A DNA stretch of 64,000 nt from the sequence record NC_055712.1, one strand, 5' to 3'. Positions 4,560 to 54,069 of the stretch are shown one piece after another (positions within the stretch are counted from its first letter, which is position 1; each line of letters begins with the position of its first letter). Source of the stretch: Escherichia phage phT4A. A program made the translations under genes and the position numbers. Under the pieces are notes generated by a model. The model was not told the origin of the DNA, made no database searches, and saw only the letters and a program-made list of their open reading frames with translations.

Positions 4560-6054
4560 ATGAATGACATTAAAGTAGTAGTAAAATCCTCTGGTGTACG
4601 CCAGCCGTTTGACAAAGAAAAAATATACAAAGTGCTCAAGTGGGCCTGTGATGGTCATAATATCGATGTTCGTGCATTCCTTGAAAATGTATTAGAACTG
4701 ATCCGCGATGGTATGACTACCAAACAAATTCAACGTATCGCTATCAAGTATGCAGCAGATCATATTTCTGTTAAAGAACCGGATTGGCAATACGTAGCAT
4801 CGAATCTTGAAATGTTTGCATTGCGTAAAGACGTTTACGGTCAGTTCGATCCTATCCCGTTCTACGATCACATCGTTAAAATGGTTGAAGCGGGGAAATA
4901 CGATAAAGAGATCCTGGAAAAATACAGCAAGCAAGATATTCAAGTTTTCGAACGTGCAATTGATCATGATAAGGATTTTGAATTTTCGTATGCTGGTTCC
5001 CAACAGTTAATCGGGAAATATCTGGTTCAGGATCGCGATACTGGCGAAATCTTTGAAACCCCTCAGTATGCGTTTATGCTTATTGCGATGTGTCTGCATC
5101 AGGAAGAAACTGGGTTAGCACAGGTTACGCATATCGTTGATTTTTATAACGCAATTTCCGATCGCAAACTGTCTCTACCGACTCCAATTATGGCGGGTGT
5201 ACGTACTCCTACGCGCCAGTTCTCCAGTTGTGTAGTAATTGAATCGGGTGATTCTCTTGGTTCTCTTAACGCTGTAACCTCTGCGATCGTGAAGTATATT
5301 TCACAACGTGCTGGTATTGGGGTTAACGCGGGACATATTCGCGCAATGGGTTCTAAAATCCGTGGTGGTGAAGCTGTTCATACTGGTGTGATTCCTTTCT
5401 GGAAACATATTCAAACCGCTGTTAAATCCTGTTCACAGGGTGGCGTTCGTGGTGGTGCTGCAACACTGTATTATCCTTTCTGGCATCTGGAAGTTGAAAA
5501 CCTTCTGGTGTTGAAGAACAACAAAGGCGTAGAAGAAAACCGCGTTCGTCATCTTGATTATGGTGTACAGCTTAACCAGTTGATGTATAAACGCTTAATG
5601 AATCGTGATTACATTACGCTGTTTAGTCCGGATGTTGCTAACGATCGTCTGTATGATCTGTTCTATGAAGCTGATCAGACTGCATTTGAAGAACTGTATG
5701 AAAGCCTGGAAAAAGATCCAACTGTTCGTAAGAAACGCATCAAAGCGGTTGACCTGTTCCAACTTTTAGCACAGGAACGCGCACAGACAGGACGCAAATA
5801 CATTTTCAACACTCATCACGTCAACCAACAGGGTAGTTTTACGGTTCCTGTCCGTATGTCTAACCTGTGTTGTGAGATTGCGATCCCAACGTCGCCGCTG
5901 GATGACGATGATAAAATGGCTGGTGAAATCGGATTGTGTACGCTAATGGCTATCGTTCTGGATAACGCTGATATCAGCGAATTCCCGAAACTCACGCGTA
6001 TTGCAGTACGTGCGCTTGTATAACCTGTTGGATTACCGTAACTACCCTGTAAAA
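4560..6054 (+). CDS. nrdA: ribonucleotide reductase alpha subunit, N-terminal two thirds; frameshifted near 6018 and truncated by assembly gap
   Basis: ATP-cone N-terminus; active-site SNLCCEIAIP; frame 0 stops at 6021-6023 after AVRALV, but the +1 frame continues LYNLLDYRNYPVK, matching class I NrdA (AVRALDALLDYQDYP). Confidence 0.85.
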
Positions 6055-11407: not shown

Positions 11408-11484
11408 TGGCCCCTTAGCTCAATAGGTAGAGCTAATCACTCATAATGGTTAGGTTCCCGGTTCAAGTCACGGGAGGGGCCACC
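11408..11484 (+). tRNA. tRNA-Met (CAU)-like gene with an apparent extra A in the T-stem
   Basis: Acceptor GGCCCCT/AGGGGCC + A + CCA; D-arm GCTC-AATAGGTA-GAGC; anticodon arm AATCA-CTCATAA-TGGTT; T-arm CCCGG-TTCAAGT-CACGGG pairs perfectly only if the A at 11469 is removed. Confidence 0.55.
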
Positions 11485-11489
11485 AAACA

Positions 11490-12427: not shown

Positions 12428-12462
12428 TCAAATGGCTATCTTCGGATAGCCTTATTTTTGGG

Positions 12463-13035
12463 GTGTCTATGCGCTTTTTAAAGTATGCAAGTTGGATCGT
12501 ACTCGTCCCTCTTGACATTATTACTGGAGTATTAGCAATTCTGTTTGCCCCGTTTGTTGTACCATTCTACAACGAGAAAACAGGGCATCTTCCTAAAGGC
12601 TTCCGGTGGATGGAAACCTTCGATAACCCTATTGATGGTGATGGTGGACATATCCGCCGTTGGGCGTCCATACGCTATCATCTGGGGGATTTTGGGGTGT
12701 ACATGCAACGTGTTGGCTGGTTGTGGAGAAACAAGGCTTATAACTTCGCATATCACGTTTTAGGACGTGAAGCGACAAGCAAATTCAACTGGAAAGGCAA
12801 CCCAAAAACAGAAGGTGGGCCGAACCCTGTAAATCATGGGTATCTGCTCATGTGGAACGAATCAGCATGGGGTTTGTACGTTTACAAACCGTGGCTACGG
12901 ATCCACAAAGTGCAATTCTGTTTGCGCGTTTATGCTGGATGGAAACTGAAACAAGAAGTTAGCGACCCAGTTAACCTGGATCGTGCAATGCTGGCGTTTC
13001 ATTTCAACCCGTTCAGGTATTATGTAATCAAGTAA
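12463..13035 (+). CDS. hypothetical membrane protein
   Basis: N-terminal hydrophobic segment [25 protein letters not shown]; Trp-rich. Confidence 0.4.
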
Positions 13036-13045
13036 AGGTAATACA

Positions 13046-13408
13046 ATGAAAGCATTTCAAATTTTAGAAGGTTTGCATACTGGTACGATCTATCTGGAAG
13101 AAGGTAACGACGTTCGGATCGTAGTATCAAAAACATTAACTATGGATTCTGTGATCGGTAAAGCTCGCGTTACTCCGTTTGAAAAGCGAGAGATTGAGAT
13201 CGAATATCAACCAACTGTTAAGGTGGAAGGTGGACAGCATTTAAACGTAAACGTGTTGCGCCGCGAAACTCTCCTGGATGCGGTTGAACATCCTGAAAAA
13301 TATCCACAATTGACGATCCGTGTATCTGGTTATGCAGTGCGTTTTAACTCACTGACCCCTGAACAGCAACGCGACGTTATCGCCCGAACCTTTACAGAGA
13401 GTCTATAA
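13046..13408 (+). CDS. grcA: autonomous glycyl radical cofactor (GrcA/YfiD-like)
   Basis: C-terminal [59 protein letters not shown] is almost identical to recalled E. coli GrcA, including the RVSGY glycyl-radical motif; N-terminal half divergent. Confidence 0.8.
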
Positions 13409-13677
13409 TGGCAATTGATGATATCAAGGGTTATAAACCCCATACTGATAAAAAAGTAGAAACGGTAAACCGTATCAAAGATGCTGAAAATGCATTAGGT
13501 GCAATCCTGGAAGATATCGAACAGCGACTATCAAATTCAGATATTGATTCACTGATAGAGGAAGAATTAGATGAGGTGCTTGAACGTATCCATCAAATTC
13601 AACTAGCGAAAGACCGACTGAAAGAAGCCTCTATGTGGGCGTGTCGTGCGGTGTTTCAGCCTGACGAAAAATATTAA
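13408..13677 (+). CDS. hypothetical protein
   Basis: ORF with ATGG overlap with grcA-like stop. Confidence 0.4.
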   Translation: MAIDDIKGYKPHTDKKVETVNRIKDAENALGAILEDIEQRLSNSDIDSLIEEELDEVLERIHQIQLAKDRLKEASMWACRAVFQPDEKY

Positions 13678-13682
13678 AAATC

Positions 13683-13718
13683 AAGCCGTTGCCGAAAGGT
13701 AGCGGCTTTTTCTTTTTT
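13683..13718 (+). terminator. rho-independent terminator
   Basis: AAGCCG-ttgccgaaaggtag-CGGCTT hairpin followed by TTTTCTTTTTT. Confidence 0.6.
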
Positions 13719-13732
13719 GGTGTAAAAAGTTG

Positions 13733-13761
13733 TTGACTCCCTTCTCACATTCCCTTATAGT
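13733..13761 (+). promoter_or_regulatory. sigma70-type early promoter
   Basis: TTGACT, 17-nt spacer, TATAGT; ~40 nt upstream of the next ATG. Confidence 0.5.
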
Positions 13762-14737: not shown

Positions 14738-15178
14738 ATGGACATCGGATCAGGTAGTCAGTATCCCTCATGCGCTTTAAGCAACTTTGCCCCGCATCCG
14801 TTTACGTTCGACGGGGTAGAATGCGCATCGATGGAGGGGCTTTTACAAAGCCTGAAATTCAGCAATCCAGACATGCAAGCGCATGTATGTACGCTGGTTG
14901 GTAAAGCCGCCAAGTTCAAAGGCAAGAAAAAGAAATGGTATCGCGATCAGACCTTGTACTGGAAAGGTACACCGATCCATCGCGAATCCGAAGCGTACCA
15001 GATTCTTATTGAAAATGCGTACAATGCTCTTTTCCTGAATGACGGGTTCCGCCGTGCGCTGGCAGCAACCGGAAAAAGTACCTTGACACATTCAATGGGG
15101 AAATCTCGTATGAACGAAACTATTCTGACAGAACGAGAATTTATTAGAAATTTGAACAGGTTGAGAAATTTGTTATGA
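14738..15178 (+). CDS. NADAR (YbiA/DUF1768)-like protein
   Basis: LSNFAPHPFTFDGVECASMEGLLQSLKF resembles the NADAR N-terminal signature of E. coli YbiA (FSNF..P..DG......EH.FQA.KF). Confidence 0.6.
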   Translation: MDIGSGSQYPSCALSNFAPHPFTFDGVECASMEGLLQSLKFSNPDMQAHVCTLVGKAAKFKGKKKKWYRDQTLYWKGTPIHRESEAYQILIENAYNALFLNDGFRRALAATGKSTLTHSMGKSRMNETILTEREFIRNLNRLRNLL

Positions 15179-15693
15179 AAAGCGCTGATAACCTAAAAAA
15201 AGAAATTGAAGGAATCAAGAAATTATTGCATTATATCGATGTTGATATAGAGACTGGAATATGTACTTGGAAAAGACCCAGAAAATCTATAAATGTTGGT
15301 GATGTTGCTGGATGTAAGAAAGAAAAATATCATGTTATTTGTTTCGATTATAGGTTGTATAGACGACACAGGATTGTGTTCTATTTTGCTAAAGGTTACT
15401 TACCTCAAGTAGTAGACCACATTCATGGTGTTGAACATGGCGACGGTATTGATAATTTACAAGAGGCATCGCAAAGACAAAACGTTATTAAAAAGAAAGG
15501 ACAGAAAAACAACAAAAGTGGTTATCGAGGGGTGTGTTGGTCGTCTCGTGCTGAAAAGTATCGAGCAACTATAGGTATTGATGGAAAACAAATACATTTA
15601 GGATATTTCGATACTCCAGAAGAAGCAAGTAAAGCATATCATCAAAAAGCGAAAGAAACTTTTGGTGATTTTTATAATCCATTGGTTAAATGA
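15175..15693 (+). CDS. HNH-AP2 homing endonuclease (paralog 2 of 4)
   Basis: ATGA overlap with NADAR stop; VVDHIHG...DNLQ HNH core; AP2-like YRGVCWSSRAEKYRATIGIDGKQIHLGYFDTPEEASKAY. Confidence 0.8.
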   Translation: MKSADNLKKEIEGIKKLLHYIDVDIETGICTWKRPRKSINVGDVAGCKKEKYHVICFDYRLYRRHRIVFYFAKGYLPQVVDHIHGVEHGDGIDNLQEASQRQNVIKKKGQKNNKSGYRGVCWSSRAEKYRATIGIDGKQIHLGYFDTPEEASKAYHQKAKETFGDFYNPLVK

Positions 15694-46346: not shown

Positions 46347-47693
46347 TTAGAAATTGTCTTCGACAAACGCCGCGAGACGGGAACGATACACTGTATCAAG
46401 AATGATATGGCTTGAGTGTTCGTATTCTTTCAGCTTTTCAACAGCCCATACAAACCCGTTGTTTACGGCAGTGTTTCGAGGGTTGTCGATCTGCTTAATG
46501 TTCCCGCATAGTATCAGAAGTGTGTTCTCTCCGCAACGAGAAATGATAGATTTAATTTCGTGGTTGCTAAGGTTTTGACATTCATCAACAATTAGCACAG
46601 AACCTTTGCCCGGATCCGGATGTCCGATACTGCGACCACGGAAGTAATACAGGCTAGGGAATTGCACCACCCCTTTTTCAATCAAACCTTCAATGTATTT
46701 TTCAGATTCCGGATTATCCTTAAACAGAATATTCAGGCTAGTAATACAAGGTTCAATAGAAGGCCGGAGTTTTTCGCCCAATGTACCAGGAAGGAAGCCG
46801 ATTTCACTTGATAACGGGCTATCTGACTTCACATACATCAAGTTAGCGTAATGTCCACTATTAACCAGGTGCATAGCACCGGAAACAGCAAGCATTGTTT
46901 TACCAGAACCAGCGCCGCCCATAATGGTAGCAACATCGATTTCATTGCTCATAATGGATTCAACGAAAGCCGCTTGCAGAGAATCACGGGGCTGGATAGC
47001 TTTCATGAGTTTGCGTTTCATCGCCTGTTCATGCTTAACAGGTAAGACATTCAAGCAAATCTCATCAGCAGTCACTACACGCCCGACTAACTCACCATTA
47101 GAGGTAATGTACTGGTTAGGATAAAAATCTTCGTCAGGAAGCGAACTGTAAGTGATTTGGGCTACATTATCCGTATATCCCAACACTTCCACGGTATCCC
47201 AGAAATCAGGGATCTCTACGTAACCGGAATACAACACATCGCTATCTTTTAACGTATCGTCGCCAGTATACTGTTCTACCTTACACCCACGGGACATTGC
47301 GATCAGCAACATCATAATATCGCGAGTAACTAAGGTTGCATCCTGCTGCATACAAGTTTCAATGATTCGTTCGTCTTGCTTGTCAAGAGCAAACGTTTTG
47401 TTTCCGACATAATCAACCACTTTAAGGGTGATAGTGTCAGACAGTGCTGGGTTTGTCAGGTTTAAAGGAATACCTGATTTCGTAATCGCATCATATGACT
47501 GACCGAAAATAACTTTTGACAGAAGCCGGATCGCCAATCGTGCTTCGTGCGCTGTTCGTTCTTTCGTTTTCAGGTGATCTAATTCACCCATAGTAGCAGA
47601 GGTAATAATGATTTCTGTACCAGGTTGAGTGAATGAATAGATTGAATAGGGGTTACTAATCAAAACATTGGTGTCTAATACGTATTTTGACAT
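46347..47693 (-). CDS. phoH: PhoH-like ATPase with N-terminal PIN domain
   Basis: N-terminal PIN-like YVLDTNVLI; Walker A GGAGSGKT; Walker B LIVDECQN. Confidence 0.8.
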   Translation of the reverse strand: MSKYVLDTNVLISNPYSIYSFTQPGTEIIITSATMGELDHLKTKERTAHEARLAIRLLSKVIFGQSYDAITKSGIPLNLTNPALSDTITLKVVDYVGNKTFALDKQDERIIETCMQQDATLVTRDIMMLLIAMSRGCKVEQYTGDDTLKDSDVLYSGYVEIPDFWDTVEVLGYTDNVAQITYSSLPDEDFYPNQYITSNGELVGRVVTADEICLNVLPVKHEQAMKRKLMKAIQPRDSLQAAFVESIMSNEIDVATIMGGAGSGKTMLAVSGAMHLVNSGHYANLMYVKSDSPLSSEIGFLPGTLGEKLRPSIEPCITSLNILFKDNPESEKYIEGLIEKGVVQFPSLYYFRGRSIGHPDPGKGSVLIVDECQNLSNHEIKSIISRCGENTLLILCGNIKQIDNPRNTAVNNGFVWAVEKLKEYEHSSHIILDTVYRSRLAAFVEDNF

Positions 47694-51896: not shown

Positions 51897-52177
51897 TTAT
51901 CACCATCTGCTTTAATCTGTAAATTAGCCAGGAATGAAAACATAATATCACAGTTGCTTTCGATTAGATAGCGATATTTTAATACGGTACTTACCTCTTC
52001 CGGTTCTACCGTAGTGACCTTAATGTCTTTAGCACAAAGATCATAATCGTTACAGTACCCGTCAATATCCATAAGCGTTTTGTTTTCATCTGGATATAAT
52101 TCCAGCAAATACGCATCTTCATCAGTTACCAGCGCAACTATCCGGTTGCGCCTTGTGTTATAGGTTAAGATCTTCAT
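51881..52177 (-). CDS. hypothetical protein
   Basis: ORF only. Confidence 0.35.
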   Translation of the reverse strand: MKILTYNTRRNRIVALVTDEDAYLLELYPDENKTLMDIDGYCNDYDLCAKDIKVTTVEPEEVSTVLKYRYLIESNCDIMFSFLANLQIKADGDKWGCI

Positions 52178-53328
52178 TTCAATTCCACCGCGTATACATC
52201 CAATTCAGGGGCTTTGTGTACGCGCATATCTTTACCACATACAGCATAAGCCGGACAGTTACGGCAACCATTATGATCCTTATTACCGATCAATTCCTGA
52301 CGGAATTTCTTAGTTTTCGGATGTTCCCAGATATCTTTGATAAAGTCACTGGCTTCCAGTACGTTAAGCCCTTCTGACCATCCACCCTCGACCCAACGTT
52401 CAGTAAAGGAACAAGGGAAGAATTCACCCTTCTCGTTGATGTACGAGCTAAACATAGTTGCTTCGCAATCTTCCGCGTACTGTTTGTATTGTTCAAAATT
52501 TTCATGCCCTTCCATAGCCTCTACAAAGGCCGGAGCGGAACAGGAATCAAAACCGAACCCTACACCGGATTCAAGGCAATAATCTACCAGCGCTTTATAC
52601 TGCTCGCGTGTAACGGTATCCCAGTTCTTCCCACGACCTTTTTGTTTCAGACCCAGGAATACGATCGCGTTAACTTGTTTCAAGCGCGGATCATTCTTTA
52701 CAGCATCAACCACGTTAAACGCGTCATCATAGGTTTTAGAGCTAACCATGAAATGAAGGTTGATTTGCTGTTGTCCGGCTTCTGCAAGATTAGCCACTGA
52801 ATTAAACGCTACATCGAATCCAGCATGTTTGTATACTGATACCGCAACAGCCCCAGCAACAGCCGCTAAACGCGCTGCAACGTCTTTTGATACATCAGCA
52901 ATGGTAAGGTTCGGCACAATGCCTTTAGAACGCGCATAGGCCATCATATCAAACATATCAGGGTTTGTTTGTCCCTGTGCATCAGCACCGAGGGCGCATT
53001 GAGTCAGCCAGGGCATTTTGTCGATGATTTTGGTGAAGGTGGCAAGATCCATGTTGAACCCGTTCGGGTTATTGGACTTGTAGCAGAACCCGCAGAGTTT
53101 ACCCGCTGGCCCGTTGCATTTGGTAGTGATCTCGATATCGAGGATAAAAGGAAAATGACTATAAATAGGATCGTCAGCAGGAGTTTTTCCCCAAGTCATC
53201 ATATGACCTGTTTTCATATCAAAATTAAAATTAACCTCTTCGGAACGATAGATTTTCTTTCCTTTCGCTTCCAGTAGAAGTCCAACAGGCGTTTTGATAT
53301 GTTTGGCGTTTACTTTAACGTGTCTCAT
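52174..53328 (-). CDS. cysteine-rich putative Fe-S protein (radical SAM/SPASM-like, non-canonical spacing)
   Basis: Cys triad C-x7-C-x2-C (TKCNGPAGKLCGFCY) and C-terminal CRNCPAYAVC (CxxCx5C); start set at MRHVKV. Confidence 0.35.
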   Translation of the reverse strand: MRHVKVNAKHIKTPVGLLLEAKGKKIYRSEEVNFNFDMKTGHMMTWGKTPADDPIYSHFPFILDIEITTKCNGPAGKLCGFCYKSNNPNGFNMDLATFTKIIDKMPWLTQCALGADAQGQTNPDMFDMMAYARSKGIVPNLTIADVSKDVAARLAAVAGAVAVSVYKHAGFDVAFNSVANLAEAGQQQINLHFMVSSKTYDDAFNVVDAVKNDPRLKQVNAIVFLGLKQKGRGKNWDTVTREQYKALVDYCLESGVGFGFDSCSAPAFVEAMEGHENFEQYKQYAEDCEATMFSSYINEKGEFFPCSFTERWVEGGWSEGLNVLEASDFIKDIWEHPKTKKFRQELIGNKDHNGCRNCPAYAVCGKDMRVHKAPELDVYAVELK

Positions 53329-53340
53329 AGGAACCTCATA

Positions 53341-54069
53341 ATGTATTACGTTTACAGAATCACGAATGTTATAGAGAACAAGCACTATTATGGATCAAGA
53401 AAACCTAAAAAGTCAATGCTTGCTTCCGACGATTTAGGGAAACACTATTTCAGTAGTTCCCGTGATAGTCATTTCATCCAGGATCAGAAGGAAAATCCAG
53501 GACACTACAAATATAAAATAATCGTATCTGGGTTGTCAAGGGAAAAAGCGATGAAACTTGAGAAAAGGTTACACGAAATCTACAAGGTGGACAAGAACCC
53601 ACATTTTTATAACAAACACATACACAACAGCATTGATTTTTCATGTACGCCAGAAACAGGAAAGAAGATTTCTCAAACACATCAGAAATACGCAGCAAAG
53701 AAAATCTCAGAATCCCATAAAAGGCGATTCAAGGAAGGTATTGCATCACACAAAGGAGAGAACAACCCACGATACAACGACCATCGGTCTTATGAAGAGA
53801 TACACGGAGAGGAAAGAGCGGAAGCTATACGTAAAGCGCAATCTGAATCAAGAAGTGGAAAAGGCAATTCCCGCGCGGTTATGTGGAGATTTACTTCCCC
53901 TACTGGAGAAGAATTTTTAGTTGAAGGAGAATGTAAAAAGTTTTGCAAAGACAGAAATATTTCCATGCGCAAACTGAAAACATATTTTGGTGAAGTCATC
54001 ACAACATGTGATAAACCCTACGATATCTCTAAGAATACCGTAGGATGGAAATTAGAAAAGATTATTTGA
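53341..54069 (+). CDS. GIY-YIG homing endonuclease (Seg-like)
   Basis: N-terminal YYVYRITNVIENKHYYGSRK is a GIY-YIG motif; NUMOD-like segments (ETGKKISQTHQ, GENNPRYN); sole plus-strand gene within a minus-strand array. Confidence 0.8.
   Translation: MYYVYRITNVIENKHYYGSRKPKKSMLASDDLGKHYFSSSRDSHFIQDQKENPGHYKYKIIVSGLSREKAMKLEKRLHEIYKVDKNPHFYNKHIHNSIDFSCTPETGKKISQTHQKYAAKKISESHKRRFKEGIASHKGENNPRYNDHRSYEEIHGEERAEAIRKAQSESRSGKGNSRAVMWRFTSPTGEEFLVEGECKKFCKDRNISMRKLKTYFGEVITTCDKPYDISKNTVGWKLEKII

Follow-up and report, generated by a model that had tools for sequence, protein, structure and literature searches.

The window, i.e., the whole 64-kb stretch of DNA analysed here, comes from a Klebsiella phage that is T4-like and belongs to the genus Slopekvirus, and the 2.5 kb around the gene under study are 99.5% identical to Klebsiella phage vB_KpnM-VAC66 and ~99% identical to phages Miro, KP27, and PMBT1. 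The gene, an autonomous glycyl-radical cofactor gene of the vs.6/Y06I type, is located at 13046..13408 on the plus strand and consists of an ATG-to-TAA open reading frame (ORF) of 120 aa plus stop. A Shine-Dalgarno-like AAGGT (13035..13039, plus strand) was read from the sequence 6 nt 5′ of the ATG, with its first base being the last base of the stop codon of the upstream gene (13033-13035), and a ribosome binding site is annotated at the equivalent place in Miro. Two halves of the protein were considered separately: the N-half (aa 1-59; 13046..13222, plus strand), a phage-type GrcA N-terminal region that evolves fast but under purifying selection (characterised by hhalign, Smith-Waterman alignment, PHROG 1209, pN/pS and AlphaFold2), and the C-half (aa 60-120; 13223..13405, plus strand), a glycyl-radical domain equivalent to residues 67-127 of GrcA and 699-759 of PflB. 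The codon of Gly95, the predicted radical-bearing glycine of RVSG95Y (13328..13330, plus strand), corresponds to G102 of GrcA and G734 of PflB in the alignments with these proteins, and the RVSGY motif, which begins at 13319, is the only one of its kind within the 64-kb window.

The gene lies in a short putative transcription unit on the plus strand. Upstream there is a DUF7338 gene (190 aa; 12463..13035; Pfam PF24027, E 5e-65; PHROG 2143) with a terminator-like hairpin 5′ of it (12434-12451), while the downstream gene (13408..13677) is of the Acb2/Vs.4 type (Pfam Acb2_Tad1_hairpin PF24729, E 3.4e-17) and encodes a protein of the anti-CBASS sponge family with 48% identity to T2 vs.4 (E 1e-23). 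As the ATG of the Acb2-type gene shares one base with the stop codon of the grcA-like gene (TAATG), the two are probably translationally coupled. An intrinsic-terminator-like hairpin plus T-run (13683..13708, plus strand) forms the 3′ end of this DUF7338-grcA-acb2 unit, at a place where a terminator is annotated in Miro, and is followed by a promoter-like site (13733-13761). Across 2.76 kb, the window differs from Miro at 26 sites, of which 13 lie within the 363-nt grcA-like gene (at 13111-13324), all 13 except one being synonymous, and this local cluster of divergence suggests allelic exchange among Slopekviruses.

Some further features of the window were recorded along the way. A tRNA-Met (CAT) at 11409-11485 was placed on the plus strand by ARAGORN, and the equivalent tRNA is found on the minus strand in the Miro annotation. 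A 172-aa ORF with HNH_3 and AP2 domains (15175-15693, plus strand) resembles a homing endonuclease, and its equivalent in Miro seems to consist of shorter ORFs. The ORF of the class I ribonucleotide reductase (RNR) large subunit at 4560-6023 (plus strand; ATP-cone, all-alpha, and barrel domains) stops at position 260 of 523 in the barrel profile, and this nrdA gene may be split or interrupted. The minus strand encodes a PIN+PhoH fusion protein (46347-47693) and, at 52174-53385, a protein of 403 aa that contains a SPASM iron-sulfur domain.

By tblastn, 1,586 phage records were found to contain a homologue of the grcA-like gene, and in 1,531 of them the match covered at least 80% of the protein. 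These records include T4-like, T5-like, and jumbo phages and comprise Straboviridae, Demerecviridae, an Eneladusvirus (a jumbo phage), and a phage of Vibrio. The protein matches PHROG 1209 from end to end (1-120 of 121, E 2.6e-59), is 100% identical in other Slopekviruses and in Klebsiella phage vB_KleM_kp20, and shares 90% identity with its counterpart in Citrobacter phage Miller, 76.7% with T2 Vs.6, ~77% with other Tequatroviruses, and 52% with T5-like phages. The gene family is already known from the biochemistry of T4 Y06I (2001) and is annotated in near-identical Klebsiella phages, with Miro and other records carrying the label "glycyl radical cofactor, T4-like". Moreover, vs.6 is among the 11 uncharacterised T4 ORFs that Nolan et al. 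found conserved in all T4-like genomes compared (PMC1524935); a vs.6-type gene is not discussed in the Klebsiella M5al phage paper. As cited in PMC8683613, Wagner et al. 2001 showed in vitro that T4 Y06I is radicalised by the activating enzyme of pyruvate formate-lyase (PFL-AE) and restores O2-cleaved PFL, and E. coli YfiD was validated likewise.

Both sequence and gene order tie the window copy to vs.6 of the T-even phages. The T2 and T4 proteins (Vs.6 and Y06I) are likewise 120 aa long, colinear throughout with ours, members of PHROG 1209, and encoded with an Acb2/Vs.4 gene downstream, which in the window follows directly. The gene order in T2 is vs.7-vs.6-vs.5-vs.4-vs.3-regB, and the Jiaodavirus and Karamvirus copies also sit just 5′ of regB. 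Unlike T2, the window lacks vs.5 and vs.7 and carries the DUF7338 gene upstream instead, and residues 77 and 81 are L and E in the window but E and K in T2. With regard to the bacterial families, the protein scores 151.6 bits against the GrcA equivalog model (NCBIfam TIGR04365, "spare_glycyl"), below the cut-off of 170 because its N-half is divergent; T2 Vs.6, the T4 orthologue of which is the active Y06I, reaches 153.3 and E. coli GrcA 234. GrcA2 and GrcA3 (NF008341 and NF038360; ~80 aa) share the glycyl-radical C-half, but these models have no N-terminal domain, whereas the window protein has a full N-half and scores 92.7 vs. 145 and 109.1 vs. 158, respectively. Nor does it qualify as a full glycyl-radical enzyme of the PflB/TdcE type, since only residues 696-759 of PflB are matched (TIGR01255, 91.7 vs. 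994). The protein presumably works as GrcA does, but it is best filed as a member of the phage Vs.6/Y06I subfamily.

The C-half matches GrcA far above chance. BLASTP against E. coli GrcA gave an E-value of 1e-50 and 69% identity over aa 19-120, and for residues 60-120 the identity rises to 59/61 with E. coli GrcA (L77 and E81 of the phage being replaced by E and K) and 61/61 with Klebsiella, Raoultella, and Salmonella GrcA. The glycyl-radical family was recognised well above its gathering threshold (Pfam Gly_radical PF01228, aa 60-101, E 3.6e-18, 66.5 bits vs. 22.2), phmmer matched 6owr (GrcA) and 1h16 (PFL 696-759), and Foldseek matched 6owr, 2pfl, and further glycyl-radical enzymes. Residues 57-120 align to PflB 696-759 with 75-80% identity (E 1.6e-27), and the resemblance to glycyl-radical enzymes other than PflB is only distant. 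The preliminary description, which had recognised a GrcA/YfiD-like gene with an RVSGY motif and a last ~60 aa nearly those of E. coli GrcA, was therefore right on this point, and the identity breakpoint that it proposed to locate against Enterobacteriaceae grcA was found as a step near codons 56-60 (nt 13211-13225); at the DNA level, similarity with the E. coli gene is detected from gene nt 178 onwards. Besides the 97-100% identity of the C-terminal 61 residues, including RVSGY, to bacterial GrcA/YfiD (E. coli P68066; PDB 6OWR; TIGR04365), the protein shares the glycine loop, L77 and E81, and a fold match with the C-terminus of PflB (696-759; PDB 1H16/2PFL). It differs from PflB in having 120 instead of 759 residues, no catalytic barrel, and neither Cys418 nor Cys419, so that it can act only as a supplement to a damaged PFL. 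Two bacterial records deserve mention in this context: Klebsiella sp. WOUb02 "plasmid unnamed4" (275 kb) carries a full-length bacterial grcA, the replicon possibly being a chromid or a mis-assigned contig, and the "Vagococcus sp. WN89Y" genome, named after a Gram-positive genus, contains a typical enterobacterial grcA (91% to E. coli GrcA) that is likely due to contamination or mislabelling.

The N-half had been described as unrelated to GrcA, and this part did not survive closer comparison. It is a diverged, faster evolving, colinear homologue of the GrcA N-half, with an identity of 24-25%. Its Smith-Waterman score was 55, compared with 22 ± 4.2 in 2000 shuffles (z 7.8), none of which reached 55 (0/2000), and when the N-halves alone were compared as phage and bacterial profiles, hhalign returned a probability of 96% (E 3.9e-9, 46 columns). 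The N-half by itself also matches PHROG 1209 (E 1.9e-12), and metagenomic sequences of an intermediate type bridge the phage and bacterial N-halves. In an alignment of 37 phage and bacterial sequences, Q5, I6, R24, K29, R48, E49, P56, and V58 are invariant or nearly so. The consensus of the bacterial N-terminal region reads MITGIQIT...NSFWLLD...EARC..AK...EYREV; in the phage N-half, which is shorter by 7 residues, NSFWLLD is missing but R24, K29, R48, E49, P56, and V58 are retained. AlphaFold2 predicted a five-strand beta domain both in the phage N-half (pLDDT 91-93) and in the N-half of Salmonella GrcA (84-91), although the predictions are non-independent because they share an alignment. The shuffle statistics, the hhalign comparison, the predicted fold, and the fact that the N-half matches PHROG 1209 by itself thus led us to reject a foreign origin of this half. 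A Foldseek search with the N-half gave only insignificant KOW/SH3-like matches (E > 0.2), and consequently we claim no fold assignment. As a side observation on the models, the beta domain is predicted with confidence for both N-halves, including residues 1-60 of Salmonella GrcA, while NMR work found GrcA 1-60 to be disordered (PMC8683613); the C-half, which folds only inside PFL, receives lower AlphaFold2 confidence.

The contrast between the two halves is a general property of these proteins. In 16 of 16 pairs, whether phage-phage, phage-bacterium, or bacterium-bacterium, divergence in the N-half outpaces that in the C-half severalfold. For instance, identities in the N-half and C-half are 58% and 95% between the window and T2, 33% and 79% between the window and T5-like phages, 74% and 100% between the GrcA of E. 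coli and Serratia, and 77% and 98% between those of E. coli and Aggregatibacter; bacterial GrcA N-halves are 74-86% identical to one another. Against phage Miller, the window copy has a pN of 0.08 and a pS of 0.48 in the N-half, and 0.04 and 0.72 in the C-half, values that point to purifying selection on both halves among phages, weaker but real in the N-half. As the fast N-half and slow C-half recur in every pair compared, they are explained by heterogeneity of constraint and rate and not by mosaicism. The pattern also fits the known two-part architecture of GrcA, in which the C-half duplicates the PFL C-terminus and inserts into the enzyme, while the N-half is dispensable for catalysis and aids both binding to cleaved PFL and installation of the radical (PMC8683613). 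The dN of ~0 in the C-half is accounted for by its having to fit a near-invariant PFL core and PflA. The "chimeric structure" that had been proposed for this gene is hence not borne out: both halves are GrcA homologues, and the difference in rate is found in all 16 pairs. The preliminary description had itself set an ancient phage family, with uniform moderate divergence along the whole protein, against its own reading of a recent capture; in substance such a family is what we found, but the divergence is not uniform.

If the 3′ half had been derived recently from a host, it should be nearly identical to a bacterial grcA at synonymous sites as well, and this was not observed for the window copy. 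The best match of the 3′ half (gene nt 178-363) among 5,426 complete E. coli genomes was 81.7% identical, and the 5′ half gave no DNA alignment in the same genomes. Across 82 grcA genes of Enterobacterales/Pasteurellales, the DNA of the C-half was 76-84% identical (pN 0-0.06, pS 0.57-0.88), with a median of 0.79 and a maximum of 0.836 over 81 grcA genes. Among the Klebsiella-type sequences, a Klebsiella MAG was 82.0% identical, Raoultella 82.5%, and another metagenome contig of Klebsiella type 80.3%, and three Klebsiella and one Raoultella grcA genes that are 87-91% identical mutually are 80-82.5% identical to the window (pN 0, pS 0.70-0.72 where computed). Against grcA genes encoding the identical 61 residues, pN was 0 and pS 0.65-0.79. 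The synonymous sites of the C-half are near saturation with respect to bacterial grcA, the median identity at third positions is 0.48, and the synonymous mismatches are evenly spread, with no tract visible. As a null expectation, the same peptide was encoded with codons drawn independently from the neighbouring genes of the phage and from bacterial grcA, which resulted in 76.2 ± 2.5% identity; since the observed identity is barely above this value, almost nothing is left beyond protein-level constraint. A nucleotide donor was sought in the complete E. coli genomes, 80 GTDB species genomes, and one Klebsiella-type contig, a sample without K. pneumoniae, and none exceeded 83.6%. A nucleotide-level element was also considered as the cause of the conservation of the C-half, but the free variation at third positions (median identity 48%) led us to reject it.

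Some of the related phages do carry a host tract, and they served as a positive control (96-98% in T2-type copies). Over the C-half, T2 vs.6 shares 96.2% of its nucleotides with E. coli grcA, with 2 mismatches in ~173 nt, and the identity of this 3′ half is 95-99% across the 5,426 E. coli genomes (up to 97.8% with some strains). The tract begins and ends abruptly, with its limits at the VEGGQ codons and ~10 nt 5′ of the stop, and the 5′ half shows no similarity at the DNA level. In six further Tequatrovirus-type contigs from IMG/VR, E. coli grcA is matched at 96-97% identity, and uninterrupted matches extend over 71-88 nt. This Tequatrovirus tract looks like a recent host-to-phage gene conversion, judged by its sequence, and the 96-98% tracts indicate that conversion of the C-half from host to phage occurs in the family. 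One could ask whether the window gene, too, arose by recombination between an unrelated 5′ half of phage origin and a 3′ half newly acquired from an enterobacterial host, as 59/61 (E. coli) or 61/61 (Klebsiella-type) identical amino acids next to an N-half with 24-25% identity, together with the existence of such a tract in Tequatrovirus copies (T2 96.2%, up to 97.8%), might suggest. We consider this extremely unlikely: the T2/T4-type 3′ tract of 96-98% DNA identity to E. coli grcA is absent from the window copy, which reaches 81.7% in the 5,426 E. coli genomes and 80-84% against Klebsiella, Raoultella, and 78 other grcA genes; a pS of 0.65-0.72 with a pN of 0 is about the level expected without shared nucleotide history; the synonymous differences are evenly spread; and the N-half is homologous to that of GrcA and not foreign. 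The "recent acquisition followed by recombination" put forward in the preliminary description is accordingly contradicted by a DNA identity of at most 83.6% to sampled bacterial grcA with pN 0 and pS near saturation; recombination with the host holds for the Tequatrovirus relatives with their 96-98% tract, but not for the window copy on a recent time scale. The capture is not recent; the relationship with bacterial GrcA is old and extends over the full length of the protein.

An older exchange has to be weighed separately. The C-half of the Slopekvirus copy could once have been overwritten by gene conversion from a Klebsiella-type grcA and have drifted synonymously ever since, with its function unchanged. 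The two C-half positions that vary in enterobacterial GrcA, 77 and 81, carry the states of Klebsiella, Raoultella, and Salmonella (L and E), just as T2 carries those of E. coli (E and K), so that both phages have host-type residues here, and a 20-nt exact run with Raoultella spans codons 77 and 81. However, L and E are also present in PflB and in E. coli phage kaaroe (RB49-like) and may therefore be ancestral, and the Karamvirus and Krischvirus copies mismatch the states of their hosts at 77/81; with only six genera, about four of which fit, the data are too few for a claim of host tracking. An old overwriting would also agree with the graded nucleotide identity of the C-half to bacterial grcA, which declines from Tequatrovirus (96-98%) to Jiaodavirus (87-88%) and to Slopekvirus and Pseudotevenvirus (83-84%), with the higher pS in the C-half (0.72) than in the N-half (0.48) between the window and Miller, and with the rise in GC3 from N-half to C-half, which is 0.32 to 0.41 in the window and stronger in T2 (0.19 to 0.44) and Jiaodavirus (0.25 to 0.57). 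Nevertheless, the differences in pS and GC3 rest on ~60 codons each and amount to ~2 standard errors, and the nucleotide signal exceeds the null slightly, if at all (median 0.79 and maximum 0.836 of 81 genes vs. 0.762 ± 0.025), so that the window sequence itself bears no significant trace of such an event. On balance, we regard an old mosaic as possible but doubtful. The same tentative status applies to its extension to the family, namely that 3′ halves of phage vs.6 have been repeatedly overwritten by host grcA via homologous recombination, the Tequatrovirus tract being a fresh instance, the Jiaodavirus tract an intermediate one, and the Slopekvirus copy an old, synonymously eroded one.

Taken together, the gene is very probably the Slopekvirus orthologue of T4 vs.6 (Y06I), a full-length GrcA/YfiD homologue of the phage lineage that acts as a spare part for PFL, and not a recent chimera. 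Compared with bacterial GrcA, its N-half is homologous and colinear, with the same predicted beta domain, and its mechanism is presumed to be the same; what sets it apart is its location in a phage genome (E. coli grcA adjoins ung), and an N-half that is 24-25% identical, 7 residues shorter, and without NSFWLLD, together with an equivalog score below the cut-off. The suggestion that it is an auxiliary metabolic gene rescuing damaged PFL appears the most plausible one, given the in vitro precedent of T4 Y06I as reported in PMC8683613. In this mechanism, the protein would be expressed from the short DUF7338-vs.6-acb2 transcription unit, as gene spacing, the start/stop overlap, and the terminators indicate. 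Host PflA, the radical SAM PFL-activating enzyme, would install the radical on Gly95 of the RVSGY loop, since the entire C-half, this loop included, is the same as in host-type GrcA and T4 Y06I behaves in this way in vitro. The C-half would then fill the site in PflB left after O2 cleavage at Gly734, restoring the conversion of pyruvate and CoA to acetyl-CoA and formate, and the N-half would help the protein to recognise damaged PFL and to be activated efficiently, as in E. coli GrcA. The identity of the C-half to host-type GrcA argues strongly for such a mechanism. The way in which the N-half binds PFL could differ from that of GrcA, because it is 7 residues shorter and lacks NSFWLLD.

For the phage, the benefit would be that the supply of fermentative ATP, acetyl-CoA, and formate is maintained in micro-oxic, gut-like conditions, and it would arise after shut-off of host expression, when the grcA of the host is no longer inducible. 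Formate is the reductant of class III RNR. A second glycyl-radical motif or an nrdD gene was searched for within the 64-kb window, and none was found. A different partner, such as a class III RNR of phage or host or another glycyl-radical enzyme, is nonetheless brought to mind by a homologue two genes after nrdD in a Yersinia jumbo phage, by another directly after nrdAB in a Vibrio phage, by the role in nucleotide metabolism guessed by Nolan et al. (PMC1524935), and by the divergent N-half, which could alter the choice of partner; alternatively, the protein might be a decoy that titrates PflA and shuts down host PFL. Both readings appear very unlikely to us, as the C-half is identical to GrcA, 75-80% identical to PflB 696-759, and distant from other glycyl-radical enzymes, the window contains no nrdD-type motif, and T4 Y06I, in the account given by PMC8683613, reconstituted PFL activity and did not inhibit it.

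These results have consequences for how such genes are read. A block of near-identity at the protein level does not show recent capture; here, the synonymous sites argue against it, and homology extends to the half that has diverged. In the T-even phages, the vs.6 tract would illustrate cleanly how, in nature, an auxiliary metabolic gene can undergo internal gene conversion from host to phage, and a narrow literature search found no published description of a vs.6/grcA mosaic at the nucleotide level. The phage N-half forms a distinct conserved subfamily and may be useful as a probe of how the N-terminal region of the spare part recognises damaged PFL. If the repeated overwriting of 3′ halves by host grcA holds true, it would keep the spare part of the phage matched to the local PFL and PFL-AE.
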